Part shown: one piece after another, positions 1 to 12,086 of the stretch
Layout of the letters: the number at the start of each line of letters is the position of its first letter
How positions within the stretch are numbered: the first letter of the stretch is position 1
From: a virus
Lineage: Duplodnaviria; Heunggongvirae; Uroviricota; Caudoviricetes
Reading direction: 5' to 3' (one strand)
IMG/VR virus record: IMGVR_UViG_2703718792_000009
DNA length: 12,086 bases
Program-made: the position numbers and the translations under genes
Notes under the pieces: model-generated
The model's input: the letters and a program-made list of their open reading frames with translations, nothing else
Databases searched by the model: none
Told to the model about the DNA's origin: nothing

Positions 1-564
1 TTTGCTGCCGCTCTGAATTGCAGCATCCGGTTTAACCACAGAAAGATCGTTTTCTGGCTGGTCAGAGGATTCGCCAGAATTCTCGGACGAATAATCTTTT
101 CTTTTTTCTTTTGTAATAGTGTCTTTTGTGTCCCCCTGTTTTGAGGGATAGCAATCCCCCAATTTGAGGGATGTTTTATCCCTCGTTTTAGGGGATTTTC
201 CCTCGTTTTGAGGGATACACCATTCTGAGATGTTTTTATTTGGTCCAAACATGCCGCCTTGCTGCTTGATAATATTCATTCTGACGAGTTCTAACTTGGC
301 TTCATTGCACCGTTTGACGGGTAACTTTGTAATCTCGCTAAGTTGAGAATCGGTGATTCTGTCCATTGGTTTATTCCACCCATAGGTTTTACGCAGAATG
401 GCAAGCAGCACTTTAAACTGTCGCTTGGTCAGATCTGCGCCTGAATAAGCCTCAAGCAGCATATTTGATAGTCTGGCGTAACCATCATCGAGATCTGCCA
501 CATTACGCTCCTGTCCGGCAAAGTTACCTCTGCCGAAGTTGAGTATTTTTGCTGTATTTGTCAT
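1..564 (-). CDS. O: Replication initiation protein O (lambda O-like), N-terminal ~188 codons; 3' end lies beyond the window start
   Basis: Minus-strand frame from ATG (complement of 562-564) reads MTNTAKILNFGRGNFAGQERNVADLDDGYARLSNMLLEAYSGADLTKRQFKVLLAILRKTYGWNKPMDRITDSQLSEITKLPVKRCNEAKLELVRMNIIKQQGG..., matching lambda O as recalled; open to position 1. Absent from the ORF track because it runs off the edge. Confidence 0.9.
   Translation of the reverse strand, partial: MTNTAKILNFGRGNFAGQERNVADLDDGYARLSNMLLEAYSGADLTKRQFKVLLAILRKTYGWNKPMDRITDSQLSEITKLPVKRCNEAKLELVRMNIIKQQGGMFGPNKNISEWCIPQNEGKSPKTRDKTSLKLGDCYPSKQGDTKDTITKEKRKDYSSENSGESSDQPENDLSVVKPDAAIQSGSK
95..217. repeat. ori-lambda-like origin: four ~19-20 bp iterons (131-150, 154-173, 177-196, 198-217) plus adjacent AT-rich tract (95-130), inside the O coding sequence
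   Basis: Four tandem copies of a TCCCTC-N5/6-GAGGGA-type inverted-repeat unit at ~21-23 bp spacing, followed on the O-downstream side by a T/A-rich stretch (aatcttttcttttttcttttgtaatagtgtcttttgtg). Confidence 0.85.
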
Positions 565-596
565 AATGACTCCTGTTGATTGATCCAGTAATTCCC

Positions 597-893
597 TCAG
601 AATTGCATATCAATTTGCTTAAAATCCTCGGTGGCAGCCGGGGATTTTTTCTTTGTGATTTCATCAAGCGCATACTTAAAAGCCCTGCTAATCGGACTGA
701 TGTCTGATGCCATTCCGAAAGCACACAAGACCGAAGCAATAAATCTCCAGTCCGTTCTGCTTATCTTCGATTCATGACAGCCAATCATCTTTGCCAGACC
801 GCGCTGAGTAAGCGCTGACAGGTTGATAAGTAAATCTGTTTCTGCGCGATCAACGTCGCGCTGTGATAGTTTGCTGTAACTTGTTTGTTCCAT
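597..893 (-). CDS. cII: cII-like transcriptional activator
   Basis: 98-aa ORF; C-terminus ITKKKSPAATEDFKQIDMQF resembles lambda cII (...ILTNKKRPAATERSEQIQMEF) and an internal SKISRTDW segment resembles the cII HTH region; lies between cro and O as in lambda. Confidence 0.8.
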   Translation of the reverse strand: MEQTSYSKLSQRDVDRAETDLLINLSALTQRGLAKMIGCHESKISRTDWRFIASVLCAFGMASDISPISRAFKYALDEITKKKSPAATEDFKQIDMQF

Positions 894-903
894 TTCTTAA
901 GAT
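871..903 (+). promoter_or_regulatory. PRE-like cII-dependent promoter candidate: TTGC-N6-TTGT (871-884) with a possible -10 TAAGAT (898-903), directed toward cI
   Basis: TTGC tgtaac TTGT direct repeat inside the first codons of cII, the position of the lambda TTGC-N6-TTGC cII site; second repeat is imperfect. Confidence 0.4.
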
Positions 904-978
904 TTCCAATAGTGAATAGCTAGTTGAAAGGTATGCATGGAAACGCATATGGCCTTGGTTGGTCAGATATCTTGGGAC

Positions 979-1024
979 TCGCTTTTCAGCGACGTAGGAC
1001 GAATGTCCGTTGTTACAAAGAGCG
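979..1024 (-). promoter_or_regulatory. nutR-like site: boxA (complement of 1010-1024, CGCTCTTTGTAACAA) and boxB hairpin (complement of 979-992, TCGCT-GAAA-AGCGA)
   Basis: boxA-like CGCTCTTT motif followed ~17 nt later by a 5-bp stem with GAAA loop, in the cro-cII interval; the nutL counterpart has the same loop and a covarying stem. Confidence 0.55.
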
Positions 1025-1034
1025 GATCCGCTTA

Positions 1035-1250
1035 TTAAGCGGATTTGTGTTCTGGCGGGAATACGTCATCAAGACTTACTTTTGCGCCTAACTTGTTTAG
1101 ACACGCAACAAGAGCACGGCATGTTTTAAGGTCTGGGAAGCGACGACCAGATTCCCAATGTCCGATAGCTCCCTGTGTGCATCCAACTTCCTTAGCAAGT
1201 GTTGTTTGAGAGATATTCAGTGACTCTCGATATTTTCGTAGGTTGCTCAT
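1035..1250 (-). CDS. cro: Cro-like HTH repressor (71 aa)
   Basis: Start taken at the internal ATG (complement of 1248-1250), preceded by GGAGGG; [39 protein letters not shown]... is an HTH_XRE-type domain resembling the N-terminus of the adjacent cI; divergent from cI across an operator region. Confidence 0.8.
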
Positions 1251-1276
1251 ATGCCCTCCATAGTAACCATGAAGAA

Positions 1277-1305
1277 AAAATACAATATGTACTTTTTGAA
1301 TGCAA
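1277..1305 (-). promoter_or_regulatory. PR-like promoter for cro: -35 TTGCAT (complement of 1300-1305), 17-bp spacer, -10 TATTTT (complement of 1277-1282)
   Basis: Read on the minus strand upstream of cro; good -35, canonical spacing, A/T-rich -10. Confidence 0.5.
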
Positions 1306-1349
1306 GCAAAAATACACATTGTGCATGGATGGTTGCAATACAGAGCGTA
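1281..1349. promoter_or_regulatory. OR-like tripartite operator: three TACA-N3-TGTA-type sites (1281-1291 TACAATATGTA, perfect palindrome; 1313-1323 TACACATTGTG; 1339-1349 TACAGAGCGTA)
   Basis: Three related 11-bp sites between the divergent cro and cI starts, centres spaced 32 and 26 bp; the same motif recurs three times upstream of N. Confidence 0.5.
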
Positions 1350-1360
1350 ATAATAAGGAC

Positions 1361-2020
1361 ATGAAAATGAAATGGTATGAACTGGCTAGATCCAGAATGA
1401 AAGAGCTCGGCATAACTCAAGAGAAGTTAGCCGAAGAGCTAGGTATGACGCAGGGTGGGATTGGACACTGGTTGCGCGGATCTCGTCATCCATCTCTTAG
1501 TGATATTGGTGTGGTGTTTAAATACCTTGGTATTGATAACATATCATTCAACCACGACGGGACATTTTCACCTGTTGGCGAATACTCATCGGCCCCAGTT
1601 AAAAAACAATATGAGTACCCTGTTTTTTCTCATGTTCAGGCTGGGATGTTCTCTCCAGAACTTAGAACCTTTACCAAAGGTGATGCAGAGAGATGGGTAA
1701 GCACAACCAAAAAAGCCAGTGATTCTGCATTCTGGCTTGAGGTTGAAGGTAACTCAATGACCGCACCAACAGGTTCCAAGCCCAGTTTTCCTGATGGAAT
1801 ATTAATTCTGGTTGACCCTGAAAAGGCCGTTGAGCCTGGCGATTTCTGCATAGCCAGACTTGGTGGTGATGAATTTACCTTCAAGAAACTGATCAGGGAT
1901 AGCGGTCAGGTGTTTTTACAACCACTAAACCCACAGTACCCAATAATCCCATGCAATGAGAGTTGTTCCGTTGTGGGGAAAGTTATCGCCAGCCAGTGGC
2001 CTGAAGAGACGTTTGGGTAA
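1361..2020 (+). CDS. cI: cI-type prophage repressor with LexA/S24-like autocleavage domain (219 aa); C-terminal domain lambda-cI-like, N-terminal HTH of a different immunity type
   Basis: C-terminal ~135 aa ([63 protein letters not shown]...[23 protein letters not shown]...[10 protein letters not shown]) match lambda cI as recalled, including the GNSM serine and FKKL lysine; N-terminus [37 protein letters not shown] is unlike lambda. Start set at ATG 1361; the longer track ORF from 1199 would overlap cro and the operators. Confidence 0.9.
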
Positions 2021-2049
2021 CCACAATACAACCTTGTTGTCGCAAAAAG

Positions 2050-2097
2050 ATCGCATATGCGATTGTTTATTAGAAATAGAAATCGCCATATAGGCGA
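2050..2097. promoter_or_regulatory. Two palindromes with TCGC/GCGA half-sites in the cI to 2139-gene intergenic region (2050-2063 ATCGCATATGCGAT, perfect; 2083-2097 TCGCCATATAGGCGA)
   Basis: Read directly from the sequence; located 40-90 bp upstream of the 2139 start codon. Function unknown. Confidence 0.3.
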
Positions 2098-2138
2098 ATA
2101 GTCGATCGCGGCGCATAACCTAAGGAAATCAATAACAT

Positions 2139-3041
2139 ATGCCAAATTTACCGATGGGCGGATCGCAGGGTGAATTACCCTTAGTACCTACAGTAGAAGT
2201 TGTTGCTGATGGCATTCCTATGGGGGTGCTTAATGATGGAACCCCTTATCTAACTCTTTACGGTTTAGCCAAATTATGTGGCATAGATGAAGCACCTCTT
2301 CGAATGTTTACATCTAACTGGGAGACTGAAAAAAATAAGCCAAGAGGACAAAAAGTAGCTGCATACTTAGCTGAGAAAGGATTTAACAACGTTGACCGAC
2401 TGTATACCCGCGTCATAAATAGCTCAAACGTTGAAACACATGCTTATCCTGACTATGTTTGTATGGCTGTTCTTAGGTACTATGCCCTCGATGCCACAAA
2501 TTTTGATAGATCCGTTGCAATAGGAAACTTTGTTCGCTTAGCTGAATACACGCTCAAGCGAATGATCTATGAAAAAGCAAACTATAACCCCAACGCTGCC
2601 ATAGACGTTTCATTCGAAAACTATAGAGCTCGTATAAAGCTAAACAACCAAATACCAACAACTCATTTTGCTGTATTCAGAGAAATAGCAGATATTGCAA
2701 TGACGTTAATAGGAAATGGCTTTCCTATGGATGATACCACGTCACTAGACGGAAGCGTTGGAAATCACTGGGGAAAGTATTGGACAAAAAACAACCTTTC
2801 CGAGAGATTTGGTGATAGAGTTCAATATCAACACATTTTCCCTGAAAACTACAGGCAATCTGCAGCCAACAAGTACATAAAAGCCTGGATTTACCCTATC
2901 GAATCATTGGGGCTATTCAGGAAATGGCTTCACGATAACTATGCCATGGAAAAACTACCCAAATATCTTGGAAACAAAAAAATCAGTAACATAACTGAAC
3001 TATTGGAAGCCGTCAAAAAACCAGCATTACCAAACCAGTGA
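2139..3041 (+). CDS. Hypothetical 300-aa protein in the rexAB-equivalent slot (between cI and PL/nutL); candidate prophage-encoded anti-phage (abortive infection / exclusion) protein
   Basis: Long clean ORF; AAGGA 12 nt upstream of ATG; followed by a strong intrinsic terminator. Not RexA-like. No P-loop or obvious nuclease motif seen. Looks AT-richer than cI by eye (not computed). Confidence 0.8.
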   Translation: MPNLPMGGSQGELPLVPTVEVVADGIPMGVLNDGTPYLTLYGLAKLCGIDEAPLRMFTSNWETEKNKPRGQKVAAYLAEKGFNNVDRLYTRVINSSNVETHAYPDYVCMAVLRYYALDATNFDRSVAIGNFVRLAEYTLKRMIYEKANYNPNAAIDVSFENYRARIKLNNQIPTTHFAVFREIADIAMTLIGNGFPMDDTTSLDGSVGNHWGKYWTKNNLSERFGDRVQYQHIFPENYRQSAANKYIKAWIYPIESLGLFRKWLHDNYAMEKLPKYLGNKKISNITELLEAVKKPALPNQ

Positions 3042-3062
3042 TAAAATTATTTACGCTACAGC

Positions 3063-3090
3063 AACCCGGCCTCAGCGCCGGGTTTTCTTT
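3063..3090 (+). terminator. Rho-independent terminator after the 2139-3041 gene (t_imm-like)
   Basis: aaCCCGGC-ctcagc-GCCGGGtt stem (8 bp) followed by TTTTCTTT. Confidence 0.6.
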
Positions 3091-3231
3091 GCCTCACGCC
3101 CCCACCTAAAGACACATAACCAAATGTATTTATTGAAAAATAAATAGATACAACTCACTAAACCACGCAATTCTGATCTCTCCTTACATCGCCGAGGCGA
3201 TACACCCACGCTAAAAAACAACACTATTAAA

Positions 3232-3300
3232 TACAAAGTGTTATAAAAAATCACCCTATTTTAGAACAAATCGTATTGACCCAATAAAGTACATATCGTA
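3232..3300. promoter_or_regulatory. OL-like tripartite operator: TACAAAGTGTT (3232-3242), AACAAATCGTA (3265-3275), TACATATCGTA (3290-3300)
   Basis: Same TACA-N3-TGTA family as at OR; centre spacings 33 and 25 bp, close to the 32 and 26 bp at OR; overlaps the PL -35/-10. Confidence 0.45.
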
Positions 3301-3304
3301 CTAT
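3276..3304 (+). promoter_or_regulatory. PL-like promoter: -35 TTGACC (3276-3281), 17-bp spacer, -10 TACTAT (3299-3304)
   Basis: Consensus-like -35 with canonical spacing, ~190 bp upstream of N and ~45 bp upstream of nutL boxA. Confidence 0.5.
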
Positions 3305-3350
3305 TTAACCGTCAGCAGGACGCTGGAAGCCAAACGGAACAGACTGGCAG

Positions 3351-3396
3351 GCTCTTTAAACAACGTCGAACTCTCGACTACGTGGCTGAAAAGCCA
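3351..3396 (+). promoter_or_regulatory. nutL-like site: boxA GCTCTTTAAACAA (3351-3363) and boxB hairpin TGGCT-GAAA-AGCCA (3383-3396)
   Basis: boxA resembles the CGCTCTTTAACAA-type consensus; boxB has the same GAAA loop as the nutR candidate with a compensatory stem change (GG/CC here, CG/CG there). Confidence 0.55.
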
Positions 3397-3494
3397 GATC
3401 ACCCAACCACATAAGCTATGGGATGCAATGCCGGAGCAACCGTCTCAGGAGGAGCTTCGAGATTGCATCGCCAAAGTTTATTCGGGAGGAATCC

Positions 3495-3767
3495 ATGTCC
3501 AGAAAAACAGAATTTAAAGGCACCGCAGCTTCTCGCCGTAGAGCTCGTCGCGCAAATCTGCAAAGTCAGGAGGCGATCAGCTCCGACAAGCTACACAGGC
3601 CAACCCCTTCACGAGTGGTCTTGCAATGCAAGCGCAAACCAGCAATGAGAGCAGAAGTGATAACTCTGACAACGTTGACCAGAAAATATGAAGGTTCAAC
3701 TTGTCTTCCGAACGTAGCTCTTTACGCGGCAGGCCACCGGAAATCCAAACAACTGACAGCAAGATGA
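3495..3767 (+). CDS. N: N-type transcription antiterminator, P22 gene-24-like (90 aa)
   Basis: Arginine-rich motif near the N-terminus (ASRRRARRANL) and C-terminus NVALYAAGHRKSKQLTAR, close to the P22 gp24 C-terminus as recalled; GGGAGGA RBS before ATG 3495; downstream of PL and nutL. Confidence 0.8.
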   Translation: MSRKTEFKGTAASRRRARRANLQSQEAISSDKLHRPTPSRVVLQCKRKPAMRAEVITLTTLTRKYEGSTCLPNVALYAAGHRKSKQLTAR

Positions 3768-3828
3768 CTTGTGTTGGTCACCAGAAAATGAAATCAGGCA
3801 GCAAACCACTTATTTGAGAGGAATTAAT

Positions 3829-4452
3829 ATGTCATCAATCCGCTTAACTACGAGAATGAAAGAGGATATCGCTCGTAACGCTTTAATTAAGTCCGGGGTT
3901 TTCACCGAACTTGAAGAAGTAACAAAGTTAAAGAACCGGCTTGCACTTGACGCCAGAGTTGTTGCGTTTGGCGGTAAAAAGAAAACTGAAGAAGTGGATC
4001 AGTTATCATCCAGATTAATGGCTATAAGTGAAGAACTTGAAAAGATGGGATGTTCATTTTACTCATACGATGTTCGTTCTACTTCAATTTATCTGACTGT
4101 ATCTGGCAGAAGGGTTGGCTGGTATTCATATGGAAAAGACGGTAACGGCGAAGATATATTGCTCCCTACTCCTAACAGAGATAAATGCATGTTTAACGCA
4201 GAACACGAAATAACAAAAAGGTTTGATGAAATCTGCGCATTGCAACAAAAACTTGAAGCCAGGAAAAAGGATATCGAATCAAATGTATGGGCTGCTTTGA
4301 ACTCAGTAACAACAGTTAAGCGACTTATTGAAGTTTGGCCTGAAAGCAAAGAATTGCTACCAAAAGAAGCAGATAAAGCAAGTACAGCACTTCCTGCTTT
4401 ACGGGTAGAAGATTTGAATAAGATGATTGGACTTCCTTCCGAGGCCGCATAG
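3829..4452 (+). CDS. Hypothetical 207-aa soluble protein in the N to cIII interval (ral/sieB-equivalent accessory slot)
   Basis: GAGAGGA RBS 6 nt before ATG 3829 (the track ORF begins at a TTG at 3769); no hydrophobic segments; no motif I recognise; stop codon sits in the loop of a terminator hairpin. Confidence 0.7.
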   Translation: MSSIRLTTRMKEDIARNALIKSGVFTELEEVTKLKNRLALDARVVAFGGKKKTEEVDQLSSRLMAISEELEKMGCSFYSYDVRSTSIYLTVSGRRVGWYSYGKDGNGEDILLPTPNRDKCMFNAEHEITKRFDEICALQQKLEARKKDIESNVWAALNSVTTVKRLIEVWPESKELLPKEADKASTALPALRVEDLNKMIGLPSEAA

Positions 4453-4467
4453 TCGGCCTTTATTTTT
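4442..4467 (+). terminator. Rho-independent terminator (tL1-like) overlapping the stop of the 207-aa gene
   Basis: AGGCCG-catagt-CGGCCT stem followed by TTATTTTT. Confidence 0.5.
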
Positions 4468-4557
4468 GGCATAAACAACAGAATAAACACAGCACTGTGT
4501 ATTCATTCCAACGAGTGAATACACGGAGCAATTTAAAGCGTAAATAAGGAGCACACC

Positions 4558-4698
4558 ATGCAATATGCCATTGCAGGGTGGCCTGTTGCTGGCTGCCCTT
4601 CCGAATCTTTACTTGAGCGAATCACACGTAAATTACGTGACGGATGGAAACGACTCATCGACGTACTTAATCAGCCAGGAGTTCCCCAAAATGGATAA
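4558..4698 (+). CDS. cIII: cIII (46 aa), lambda cIII-like
   Basis: MQYAIAGWPVAGCPSESLLERITRKLRDGWKRLIDVLNQPGVPQNG, near-identical to the recalled lambda cIII N-terminal 46 aa; AAGGAG RBS upstream. Confidence 0.85.
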   Translation: MQYAIAGWPVAGCPSESLLERITRKLRDGWKRLIDVLNQPGVPQNG

Positions 4699-4997: not shown

Positions 4998-5705
4998 ATG
5001 GATTTGAATAAATTCGATGAGCCATTCAGCCCCGAAGATATCGAATGGCGAATACAGCAAAGCGGTAAAACACGCGATGGCAAGGTGTGGGCTATGGTGC
5101 TGGCTTATGTCACGAACCGGGCAATCATGAAACGCCTGGACGATGTTTGCGGAAAAGCAGGATGGCGCAATGAATACCGCGATATTCCCAACAACGGCGG
5201 CGTTGAATGCGGCATATCAATAAAGATTGATTCCGAATGGGTCACCAAATGGGATGCTGCTGAAAACACGCAGGTAGAAGCCGTCAAAGGTGGTCGTTCC
5301 GGTGCAATGAAGCGCGCTGCCGTTCAGTGGGGAATCGGTCGGTATCTGTATAACCTTGAGGAAGGTTTCGCACAAACATCTCTCGATAAAAAGCAGGGGT
5401 GGCACAGGGCAAAACTGAAAGATGGAACAGGATTTTACTGGCTCCCTCCATCTCTGCCGGGATGGGCAATCCCAGCATCAGATAACAAACCATCACCAGA
5501 AAATACCAACCAGAAATCTCCATCGGTTGACTGCGAACAAATCCTGAAAGACTTCAGCGATTATGCGTCAACAGAAACTGACAAGAAAAAACTCATCGAG
5601 CGTTATCAGCGTGACTGGCAATTAATGGCTGGCAACGAGGAGGCGCAGGCTAAATGCGTTCAGGTAATGAACATCAGAGTTAACGAACTAAAACAGGCGG
5701 CATAA
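4998..5705 (+). CDS. Rad52/Sak-like single-strand annealing protein (235 aa)
   Basis: N-terminal pattern DIEWRIQQSGKTRDGKVWAMVLAYVTNRAIMKRLDDVCGKAGWRNEY is typical of Rad52-family phage annealing proteins; GAGGTG RBS; sits where lambda has bet. Confidence 0.7.
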   Translation: MDLNKFDEPFSPEDIEWRIQQSGKTRDGKVWAMVLAYVTNRAIMKRLDDVCGKAGWRNEYRDIPNNGGVECGISIKIDSEWVTKWDAAENTQVEAVKGGRSGAMKRAAVQWGIGRYLYNLEEGFAQTSLDKKQGWHRAKLKDGTGFYWLPPSLPGWAIPASDNKPSPENTNQKSPSVDCEQILKDFSDYASTETDKKKLIERYQRDWQLMAGNEEAQAKCVQVMNIRVNELKQAA

Positions 5706-10108: not shown

Positions 10109-10309
10109 ATGCAACACGAACTACAACCTGATTCACTGGTTGATTTGAAATTCATCATGGCCGATACTGGCTTCGGTAAGACCTTCATCTATGACCGGAT
10201 TAAGTCCGGCGACCTGCCTAAAGCCAAAGTTATCCACGGGCGAGCAAGATGGTTATATCGTGATCATTGTGAATTCAAAAATAAGCTCTTAAGCCGCGCC
10301 AATGGGTAA
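10109..10309 (+). CDS. torI: AlpA/TorI-family excisionase (recombination directionality factor), 66 aa
   Basis: MQHELQPDSLVDLKFIMADTGFGKTFIYDRIKSGDLPKAKVIHGRARWLYRDHCEFKNKLLSRANG, a winged-helix Xis/AlpA-type fold signature; matches my recollection of E. coli KplE1 TorI; last prophage gene before the att core; CGGAGA RBS. Confidence 0.75.
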   Translation: MQHELQPDSLVDLKFIMADTGFGKTFIYDRIKSGDLPKAKVIHGRARWLYRDHCEFKNKLLSRANG

Positions 10310-10838: not shown

Positions 10839-12086
10839 CTATATTGCTGAAGGTACAGGCGTTTCCATAACTATTTGCTCGCGTTTTTTACTCAGGAAGA
10901 AAATGCCAAATAGCAACATCAGGCAGACAATACCCGAAATTGCGAAGAAAACTGTCTGGTAGCCTGCGTGGTCAAAGAGTATCCCAGTCGGCGTTGAAAG
11001 CAGCACAATCCCAAGCGAACTGGCAATTTGAAAACCAATCAGAAAGATCGTCGACGACAGGCGCTTATCAAAGTTTGCCACGCTGTATTTGAAGACGGAT
11101 ATGACACAAAGTGGAACCTCAATGGCATGTAACAGCTTCACTAATGAAATAATCCAGGGGTTAACGAACAGCGCGCAGGAAAGGATACGCAACGCCATAA
11201 TCACAACACCGATAAGTAATGCATTTTTTGGCCCTACCCGATTCACAAAGAAAGGAATAATCGCCATGCACAGCGCTTCGAGTACCACCTGGAATGAGTT
11301 GAGATAACCATACAGGCGCGTTCCTACATCGTGTGATTCGAATAAACCTGCATAAAAGACAGGAAAGAGTTGTTGATCAAAAATGTTATAGAAAGACCAC
11401 GTCCCCACAATAAATATGACAAAAACCCAGAAGTTTCGATCCTTGAAAACTGCGATAAAATCCTCTTTTTTTACCCCTCCCGCATCCGCCGCTATGCACT
11501 GGTGATCCTTATCTTTAAAACGCATGTTGATCATCATAAATACAGCGCCAAATAGCGAGACCAACCAGAAGTTGATATGGGGACTGATACTAAAAAATAT
11601 ACCGGCAAAGAACGCGCCAATAGCATAGCCAAAAGATCCCCAGGCGCGCGCTGTTCCATATTCGAAATGAAAATTTCGCGCCATTTTTTCGGTGAAGCTG
11701 TCAAGCAAACCGCATCCCGCCAGATACCCCAGGCCAAAAAAGAGCGCCCCCAGAATTAGACCTACAGAAAAATTGCTTTGCAGTAACGGTTCATAAACGT
11801 AAATCATAAACGGTCCGGTCAAGACCAGAATGAAACTCATACACCAGATGAGCGGTTTCTTCAGACCGAGTTTATCCTGAACGATGCCGTAGAACATCAT
11901 AAATAGAATGCTGGTAAACTGGTTGACCGAATAAAGTGTACCTAATTCCGTCCCTGTTAATCCTAGATGTCCTTTCAGCCAAATAGCGTATAACGACCAC
12001 CACAGCGACCAGGAAATAAAAAAGAGAAATGAGTAACTGGATGCAAAACGATAGTACGCATTTCTGAATGGAATATTCAGTGCCAT
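10839..12086 (-). CDS. cscB: LacY-family oligosaccharide:H+ symporter, most likely sucrose permease CscB (415 aa, complete; start codon is the last 3 nt of the window)
   Basis: Aligns by eye along its length with LacY (DKLGLKKPLIWCMSFILVLTGPF...NFHFEYGTARAWGSFGYAIG... vs LacY [23 protein letters not shown]...NFEFGRARMFGCVGWALC...); N-terminus MALNIPFRNAYYRFASSYSFLFF matches my recollection of CscB. Confidence 0.8.
   Translation of the reverse strand: MALNIPFRNAYYRFASSYSFLFFISWSLWWSLYAIWLKGHLGLTGTELGTLYSVNQFTSILFMMFYGIVQDKLGLKKPLIWCMSFILVLTGPFMIYVYEPLLQSNFSVGLILGALFFGLGYLAGCGLLDSFTEKMARNFHFEYGTARAWGSFGYAIGAFFAGIFFSISPHINFWLVSLFGAVFMMINMRFKDKDHQCIAADAGGVKKEDFIAVFKDRNFWVFVIFIVGTWSFYNIFDQQLFPVFYAGLFESHDVGTRLYGYLNSFQVVLEALCMAIIPFFVNRVGPKNALLIGVVIMALRILSCALFVNPWIISLVKLLHAIEVPLCVISVFKYSVANFDKRLSSTIFLIGFQIASSLGIVLLSTPTGILFDHAGYQTVFFAISGIVCLMLLFGIFFLSKKREQIVMETPVPSAI

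Follow-up and report, generated by a model that had tools for sequence, protein, structure and literature searches.

Predicted nutL and nutR sites with a GNRA-type tetraloop boxB in a lambdoid prophage carrying a VT2-Sakai-type N gene

The early region of a lambdoid prophage, oriented opposite to the usual lambda map and contained in a stretch of 12,086 nucleotides from a tailed virus (Caudoviricetes; IMG/VR record IMGVR_UViG_2703718792_000009; hereafter the window), holds two copies of one arrangement, a boxA followed by a short hairpin with a GAAA loop: one lies downstream of the leftward promoter PL, the other downstream of cro. Are these the N utilization sites nutL and nutR, and do the tetraloop and the arginine-rich motif (ARM) of the N antitermination protein encoded nearby form a recognition pair distinct from those already known? 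Position, anatomy and comparative data support reading the copies as nutL and nutR, and we take them to be genuine nut sites of a natural class with a GNRA-tetraloop boxB, common in Escherichia coli. We put at roughly 85% the probability that they are the working nut sites of a prophage with a VT2-Sakai-type N, and that tetraloop and ARM make up an N-nut recognition class of their own. From sequence comparison we infer binding of N to boxB, use of the Nus factors, the terminators overridden and discrimination against pentaloop sites. The type of system is textbook; the natural tetraloop form of boxB would be the new part. A description of nut sites of the VT2-Sakai type, or of a natural tetraloop boxB, was not found in the searchable open literature, although subscription papers of 1999-2003 may hold an earlier one; the boxB elements solved or discussed in that open literature are pentaloops and hexaloops only.

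Anatomy and conservation of the two sites

The boxA and boxB elements lie exactly where the original prediction placed them, at 3351-3396 (+) and 979-1024 (-), and the two stems (TGGCT/AGCCA and TCGCT/AGCGA) differ, as it stated, at pair 2, G-C in one and C-G in the other. Its spacer of 17-19 nt presupposes the long form of boxA, 13-15 nt, and it mentioned neither the TACG shared by the two sites nor the second hairpin within the boxA-boxB spacer, a trait of the H-19B/933W type that is present at 3365-3378 and 997-1008 (Table 1). A single C separates boxA from this spacer hairpin at both sites. The nutL boxA is preceded by a G, giving GGCTCTTT and not CGCTCTTT, and matches the core of the rrn consensus, GCUCUUUA; the pattern CGCUCUU(U)A is found 5' of boxB at both sites, as GCUCUUUA in nutL and CGCUCUUUG in nutR. 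The UACG linker is invariant in every nut site of this architecture, those of 933W, Citrobacter and Tatumella included. Each boxB loop has 4 nt, with G at position 1, a purine at position 3, A at position 4 and a Watson-Crick closing pair, the sequence hallmarks of a GNRA tetraloop, and would be expected to adopt the GNRA three-dimensional fold. The sites sit on opposite DNA strands, and yet the PL and the PR transcript both carry the loop as GAAA, which is to be expected of an RNA element but not of a palindrome in DNA. At the 5' end of the nutR boxA there is, in addition, an abutting 8-bp hairpin (UCCGCUUA-A-UAAGCGGA; 1025-1045, minus strand) that overlaps the stop codon of cro; 933W lacks this hairpin, which is tied to the cro allele of the window. 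NusB-NusE has been reported to bind double-stranded RNA adjoining the 5' end of boxA (PMC3177189).

The window contains just two cases, nutL and nutR, of a boxA with a GNRA tetraloop on a perfect 5-bp stem 10-35 nt further on, whereas dinucleotide shuffles contain on average 0.0045 such motifs and two or more in 0/2000 cases; GNRA hairpins at 3130, 5884 and 11664 were dismissed, none being accompanied by a boxA. Fold prediction bears out the isolated boxB hairpins (nutL, -7.1 kcal/mol, z -3.05; nutR, -6.5 kcal/mol, z -2.78), and both nutL hairpins are part of the minimum-energy structure of the full PL leader (3311-3510; -70.5 kcal/mol, z -4.4). An Rfam scan (E up to 1) found no family at nutL or nutR; its only real match in the window is the cIII thermoregulator.

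Prophages with the same N carry the same sites, and the condition that the original prediction had named as refuting it, homologous prophages without these hairpins, did not arise. Of 83 records sampled (the window, two phage records and 80 IMG/VR loci), 82 have nutL, the remaining one having no upstream sequence, and the same nutR stands in 78 of the 79 loci that reach its position, four being too short and the exception (locus L048) being taken up below. Among 54 distinct PL-leader haplotypes, variable positions number 0/13 in boxA, 0/4 in UACG and 1/14 in boxB (loop position 2), that is 1/31 over the three elements against 39/70 in the immediate flanks, and only the loop of the nutL spacer hairpin varies. 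The pattern indicates that the nut elements are under purifying selection.

The original prediction also held that the compensatory difference between the two stems argues for selection on RNA structure. Taken alone, that difference is weak evidence; the relatives, however, have double changes at three of the five pairs, and these do support the claim. Eleven distinct boxB sequences, all perfectly paired, came from two sources: a search with the nutR spacer and stem that left the loop free at 4-5 nt, and a small species-level survey (a 4-protein alignment used on genome contigs, 5 loci only). Nine have tetraloops: UGGCU-GAAA-AGCCA, UCGCU-GAAA-AGCGA, UGGCU-GCAA-AGCCA, UCGCU-GCAA-AGCGA, CGGCU-GAAA-AGCCG, AGGCU-GAAA-AGCCU, UGGCC-GCAA-GGCCA, UGGCC-GAAA-GGCCA (Tatumella) and UAGCU-GAAA-AGCUA (Citrobacter). 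Two have pentaloops, UCGCU-GACAA-AGCGA and GCGCU-GACAA-AGCGC (933W, HK106). The formal count of pairs was made on the tetraloop sites only (alignment A4), because in the MAFFT alignment A3 the gap for the pentaloop fell at the 3' end. All cells of the nine are paired, double changes fall at pairs 1, 2 and 5, and the covariation score is 0.544 against 0.156 for shuffled alignments, with 0/500 shuffles reaching it. Pair 5 is the loop-closing pair, which changes from U-A to C-G; its covariation fixes the loop at 4 nt and rules out a reading as pentaloop or hexaloop. Perfect stems enclose only GAAA, GCAA or GUAA (G-N-A-A, with N being A, C or U). Scans with GNGA, GNYA and GKAA versions of the nut pattern gave 13 matches, of which 12 were unpaired chance matches and one a real nutR with GUAA; the GNGA and GNYA versions matched unpaired chance sequences only. 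Variation at loop position 2 alone is consistent with what a GNRA fold tolerates. A perfectly paired hairpin of the boxB type stands upstream of N in all N-linked loci but L202, where a 933W-type N follows a replaced upstream region, and the spacer hairpin shows a compensated change of its own in Citrobacter, from GGAC/GUCC to GGCC/GGCC (GGCC-GUCC-GGCC). The nutL spacer hairpin is itself GNRA-looped (AUUCA-GUGA-UGAAU) in a group of loci whose N has a 933W-like body (L116, L158, L200, L085), so that two GNRA hairpins lie 4 nt apart there; the corresponding loop in HK106 is GAGA.

Loop size, the ARM of N and the known nut systems

The N of the window matches Pfam family PF25694 over its full length (112 bits; cutoff 27.9) and is 98.9% identical to the N of VT2-Sakai, Stx2 phage II, YYZ-2008 and many other Shiga toxin (Stx) phages. 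It had been called P22-gene-24-like, a description that suits the protein as a whole (shared family, 42% identity to P22 gp24) but not its ARM, which is closer to lambda (ungapped identity 9/18 with lambda, at A3, R6-8, R10-11, A12, Q15 and Q17; 7/18 with P22; 6/18 with 933W), nor its nut sites, which are closer to H-19B/933W. A search of PDB sequences with N (E up to 10) gave no match, since the solved N peptides are too short.

The ARMs of N proteins linked to a tetraloop all fit RRR-x-(R/H/A)-R-(A/K)-x-(L/M)-Q. They read GTAASRRRARRANLQSQ in the Sakai type, ...RRRAHRAELQSL in Shigella phage 75/02, GSA(A/S)GRRRERRAALQN in the L116 group and Citrobacter, GSSAARRRERRAHMQS in locus L168, GTADSRRREARKHLQA in L120 and GSAAGRRRVRRADLQS in Tatumella. 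Every N linked to GACAA carries the ARM RSRRRERLKAKALANGVLAR. The two classes have the arginine core (RRRER) in common and diverge after it; in lambda N, according to structures of 1998 and 2000, the part that follows the core reportedly lies over the loop. The residue aligned with lambda W18 is Glu in the window and L, A, V or D in its relatives.

Loop and ARM co-segregate perfectly. Among 121 distinct haplotypes of N plus nutR, 79 combine a tetraloop with a tetraloop-class ARM, 42 a pentaloop with the 933W ARM, and none is mixed. Both nutR types are found alongside each of three cro families, and every time the loop follows N across the immunity region. It is the ARM, and not the body of N, that tracks the loop: N of the L116 group is 933W-like after residue 30, yet it has a tetraloop-class ARM and a tetraloop nutL. 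The co-segregation favours the original suggestion that N and its nut sites may be a distinct specificity pair.

A natural chimera occurs in Tatumella terrea (L207; NZ_BAAAFX010000014, 5001-5330), whose N joins a P22/933W-like N-terminus (MTRRTQFNG) and a tetraloop-class ARM to a lambda-N-like C-terminal half (…WYSKPGERGITCTGRQKSRGRSIPLV), with a tetraloop nutL. The RNA-binding part of N and the part that binds polymerase and NusA thus recombine.

Which of the known systems is closest? The nut sites resemble those of H-19B/933W rather than those of P22, one of the comparisons that had been suggested, with loop size as the departure. H-19B, 933W and HK106 have boxA, spacer hairpin, CUACG and a 5-bp boxB in the same order. 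The annotated nutR of 933W/HK106 reads CGCU(C/A)UUUUCACAAU-GGACAUUCGUCC-UACG-UCGCU-GACAA-AGCGA-GUCCCAA, and that of the window equals it in spacer hairpin (GGACAUUCGUCC), linker, stem (UCGCU/AGCGA) and 3' flank (GUCCCAA), whereas the loop is GAAA (4 nt) in place of the pentaloop GACAA. In nutL, the consensus boxA of the window contrasts with CGCACUACU in 933W/HK106. The two N proteins have in common the N-terminus MxRRTxFKG and the C-terminus CLPNVALYAAGxRKSKQLTAR, but they are only 40% identical, differ in size (90 aa in the window, 127 aa in H-19B/933W) and part ways after RRRxR, with RAxLQ in the window and LKAKALANGVLAR in H-19B/933W.

P22 shares with the window the protein family, the C-terminal ALYAAGHRKSKQ(L/I)TAR and the U-A closing pair (nutL boxB stem GCGCU/AGCGC); its loop is the pentaloop GACAA, a GNRA-like fold from which the C loops out and contacts the peptide (PMC12550061), and its spacer of 9-10 nt has no hairpin. 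As the genome records show, the spacers of lambda and P22 are both short and hairpin-free. Lambda agrees in the positions of the sites relative to PL, N, cro and cII, in RRRxRRA and Q15 of the ARM, in a homologous N-leader stem and in the top of boxB (CU-GAA(A)A-AG with a U-A closing pair). The original prediction was right to separate this boxB from the lambda pentaloop form: lambda has GAAGA or GAAAA together with Trp18, which stacks on the loop, and the window a tetraloop without a fifth base and Glu at the position of W18. The lambda pentaloop extrudes its fourth base (PMC12550061, PMC12027372). Lambda differs also in its boxA (CGCUCUUA), its short spacer without hairpin and the unrelated C-terminal domain of its N. 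Taking the extruded base out of either pentaloop, C from the GACAA of P22/933W or A from the GAAAA of lambda, leaves GAAA.

The boxB of phi21 has the hexaloop CUAACC on a longer stem than that of the window; its ARM, which we take to begin with GTAKSRYKARRAEL, resembles the GTAASRRRARRANL of the window. The phi21 RNA loop mimics a GNRA fold (PMC12550061). The rrn antiterminator resembles the window in the core GCUCUUUA followed by ACAA (rrn, UGCUCUUUAACAA), and the nutL boxA, GCUCUUUA-AACAA, fits the rrn consensus UGCUCUUUA and not lambda CGCUCUUA (PMC2724277); in rrn, however, the order is boxB-boxA-boxC, N is not needed and boxB is dispensable (PMC2724277, PMC8632103).

A proposed recognition class and its alternatives

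We propose that, when PL and PR fire, the nascent RNAs would present the whole array from boxA through the small spacer hairpin and UACG to boxB. The boxB, with its GAAA tetraloop closed by U-A, would be bound by the arginine-rich N-terminus of N (GTAASRRRARRANLQSQE), NusB/NusE would bind the near-consensus boxA, and NusA would bind N and the spacer. The complex would then stay with RNA polymerase, as in the lambda N complex, the general architecture of which is known (PMC8632103, PMC2724277). On the right, tR1 would no longer keep polymerase from cII and the replication genes; on the left, polymerase would overrun the terminator-like sequence at 4441-4460, where the Nmad5 gene ends, and go on to cIII, kil and the recombination genes. 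The ARM is of a class RRRxRRAxLQ, without Trp at the W18 position and different from the 933W ARM only after the arginine core. It is the pairing of a tetraloop with an ARM that diverges in the region that contacts the loop in lambda that points to a recognition class of its own.

Several observations weigh against this proposal. From boxA to boxB, the isolated nutL RNA at equilibrium prefers to pair boxA with the 3' half of boxB, leaving the boxB stem a probability of 0.04 (about 0.55 in nutR). The boxB set used for covariation was gathered by requiring pairing. The haplotypes are phylogenetically related, and the nominal Fisher p of 1.6e-33 for the match between loop and ARM is not a true probability. 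That match could stem from physical linkage if immunity regions swap as cassettes. Finally, one locus, L048 (IMGVR_UViG_2531839234_000006, 1-4150), joins a Sakai-type N to a lambda nutR: it carries lambda cI, cro, nutR and cII together with PL and operators, nutL and N of the Sakai type. We set L048 aside as evidence of cross-reactivity, since its PL operators are non-lambda and would leave PL beyond the reach of the lambda repressor; the locus may come from a defective prophage or from a chimeric assembly.

Could the hairpins have nothing to do with RNA? Operator regions commonly hold short palindromes, and a terminator scan flagged the nutL spacer palindrome on the opposite strand (3378-3365). 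Chance palindromes, DNA-binding sites or terminators near the promoters are nonetheless a very remote explanation, in view of the composite motif being far above chance expectation, the asymmetric loop that is GAAA in the transcribed sense at both sites, the covarying stems and, as regards terminators, a boxB without a T-run after it; the homologous sites of 933W and HK106, moreover, are annotated nut sites, and footprinting with N and NusA has been reported for the H-19B nutR (PMC3526286). A further alternative takes the equilibrium folds at face value: boxA and the 3' half of boxB would form a competing long-range helix that serves as a regulatory switch, like the "alternative NUT RNA structures" of H-19B. 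GCUCUUU does pair with AAAAGC in the minimum-energy folds of isolated nutL and nutR, and this form dominates the ensemble of the window nutL. Yet 8 of 11 related nut sites are predicted to fold without this helix, which is also impossible in relatives with a non-canonical nutL boxA and gone from the fold of the full leader; it is a trivial outcome of a U-rich boxA facing an A-rich loop, and co-transcriptional folding and NusB/E on boxA favour the local hairpins. We set the switch aside as not conserved and judge it improbable.

An alternative that we consider unlikely, but far less so than the previous two, accepts the nut sites as real and denies that loop size sets specificity, Sakai-type and 933W-type N each working on either loop. 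The association of loop and ARM would then be a by-product of linkage, cassettes being swapped between nutL and nutR: nutL lies 100-320 nt from the codons of the ARM and is inherited with them, and, next to variable cro genes, nutR and cII make up a conserved block. Interchangeable loops would also agree with the arginine core RRRER common to both ARM classes and with the pairing of this N with a lambda nutR in L048. The lambda N peptide is said, in work of 1998, to bind a boxB with a GAAA tetraloop about as well as one with a pentaloop. Against this reading, none of the 121 haplotypes is mixed, despite a single-base difference in nutR and three immunity families in common, and the class of the ARM follows the loop even where the rest of N is 933W-like or lambda-like; recombination inside N therefore occurs without breaking the match. 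The loop, too, is invariant apart from position 2.

The proposal of a separate recognition class can be taken one step further, if only tentatively and at somewhat less than even odds. To the three N-boxB classes of lambda (pentaloop, fourth base out, Trp18), P22/H-19B (pentaloop, third base out) and phi21 (hexaloop), the window would add a fourth, with a true GNAA tetraloop and a Trp-less lambda-like ARM, whose specificity a single loop nucleotide would suffice to set apart from that of the H-19B/933W class co-resident in enterohaemorrhagic E. coli. If so, without an extruded base and without Trp18, the N-boxB surface offered to NusA would have to differ from that of lambda. N-boxB is a textbook model of peptide-RNA recognition and a widely used tethering tool. 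A natural tetraloop class would provide a GNRA fold without an extruded base, so far made only by mutation, a natural specificity switch of one nucleotide with respect to the 933W/H-19B class and possibly an orthogonal peptide-hairpin pair for tethering. Whether the N of one Stx prophage cross-activates a neighbouring prophage hinges on N-boxB specificity. There is also a value for annotation: of 5,426 complete E. coli genomes, 759 carry nutL with an N of this type, the Stx2a phage of O157:H7 Sakai being one bearer of the pair, and in GenBank the entries for VT2-Sakai and Stx2 phage II mark promoters and operators while leaving nut sites unannotated.

The N leader and the surrounding genes

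Table 1. Positions of the nut elements and neighbouring features in the window
Feature	Position	Strand	Description or basis
nutL, whole site	3351-3396	+	about 40 nt from PL to boxA, about 100 nt from boxA to N
nutL boxA	3351-3363	+	GCTCTTTAAACAA = GCUCUUUAAACAA; sequence
nutL spacer hairpin	3365-3378	+	GUCGA-ACUC-UCGAC (DNA GTCGA-ACTC-TCGAC); predicted folds
nutL UACG linker	3379-3382	+	between spacer hairpin and boxB; sequence
nutL boxB	3383-3396	+	UGGCU-GAAA-AGCCA, 5-bp stem with GNRA tetraloop; sequence, fold, covariation
nutR, whole site	979-1024	-	starts 10 nt after cro stop, before cII
nutR boxA	1010-1024	-	CGCTCTTTGTAACAA = CGCUCUUUGUAACAA; sequence
nutR spacer hairpin	997-1008	-	GGAC-AUUC-GUCC (DNA GGAC-ATTC-GTCC); predicted folds; identical in 933W/HK106 nutR
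nutR UACG linker	993-996	-	sequence
nutR boxB	979-992	-	UCGCU-GAAA-AGCGA; sequence, fold, covariation
N antitermination protein gene, 90 aa	3495-3767	+	Pfam PF25694 N_peptide; PHROG 271
N ARM, residues 9-26	3519-3572	+	GTAASRRRARRANLQSQE
N-leader long stem	3421-3483	+	between nutL and N ribosome-binding site; fold, covariation
PL promoter	3276-3304	+	-35 TTGACC at 3276, -10 TACTAT ending at 3304; promoter scan
cII	597-893	-	Pfam Phage_CII, 1.5e-31
Presumed Rho-dependent tR1, nutR-to-cII interval	894-978	-	position; homology of 3' flank (GUCCCAA...) to 933W nutR
cro, 71 aa	1035-1250	-	HTH_3
cI	1367-2020	+	
Accessory gene, 300 aa	2139-3041	+	between cI and PL (rexAB slot)
Nmad5 (nucleotide-modification-associated) domain gene	3829-4452	+	directly 3' of N
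Candidate tL1, terminator-like hairpin and T-run	4441-4460	+	end of Nmad5 gene, before cIII; terminator scan
cIII thermoregulator	4545-4603	+	Rfam Lambda_thermo (RF01804), 88.5 bits, E 6e-21

GenBank and RefSeq start the VT2-Sakai-type N at an upstream ATG, which gives 114 aa (3423 in the window, against 3495; 3429-3773 in loci L001 and L002). We favour the 90-aa protein predicted from 3495, because a Shine-Dalgarno sequence (GGAGG) lies at 3486-3490 and all homologues begin with MxRRTxFKG. RefSeq E. coli genomes often name this N "hypothetical protein". The long stem in the N leader (GGGAUGCAAUG ... GAUUGCAUCGCC, then AAAG; lambda counterpart, GGGGUGUGUG ... CACACACCACC-AAAG) covaries in sequence among the relatives and lambda, and appears to be a homologue of the N-leader stem of lambda (boxC / RNase III site).

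PL overlaps a palindromic operator, AGTACATATCGTACT, and the Stx2 phage II record annotates a promoter and operators at the equivalent position. Beyond the Nmad5 gene come cIII and then recombination genes. On the other side, tR1 is presumed, by analogy with lambda and H-19B, to be Rho-dependent; nutR and tR1 overlap in H-19B (PMC3526286).

The product of the accessory gene in the rexAB slot is the abortive-infection protein BstA (PADLOC BstA, 4e-106; PHROG 6287, 2e-131), for which Pfam gave no match; the same slot holds other genes in VT2-Sakai and phage 2B8. A strong terminator-like hairpin (621-648, plus strand), antisense to the 3' end of cII, occupies the position of the lambda oop terminator, and four iteron-like repeats (CCC-N-GTTTTGAGGGAT-like; 120-230) at the start of the replication gene O presumably mark the origin. 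The prophage ends with a TorI-type excisionase (10109-10309, plus strand), and the chromosomal gene for the sucrose permease, cscB (10839-12086, minus strand), follows about 500 bp further on; this end has no integrase or tRNA, as in KplE1-type prophages, in which the integrase lies at the other end.

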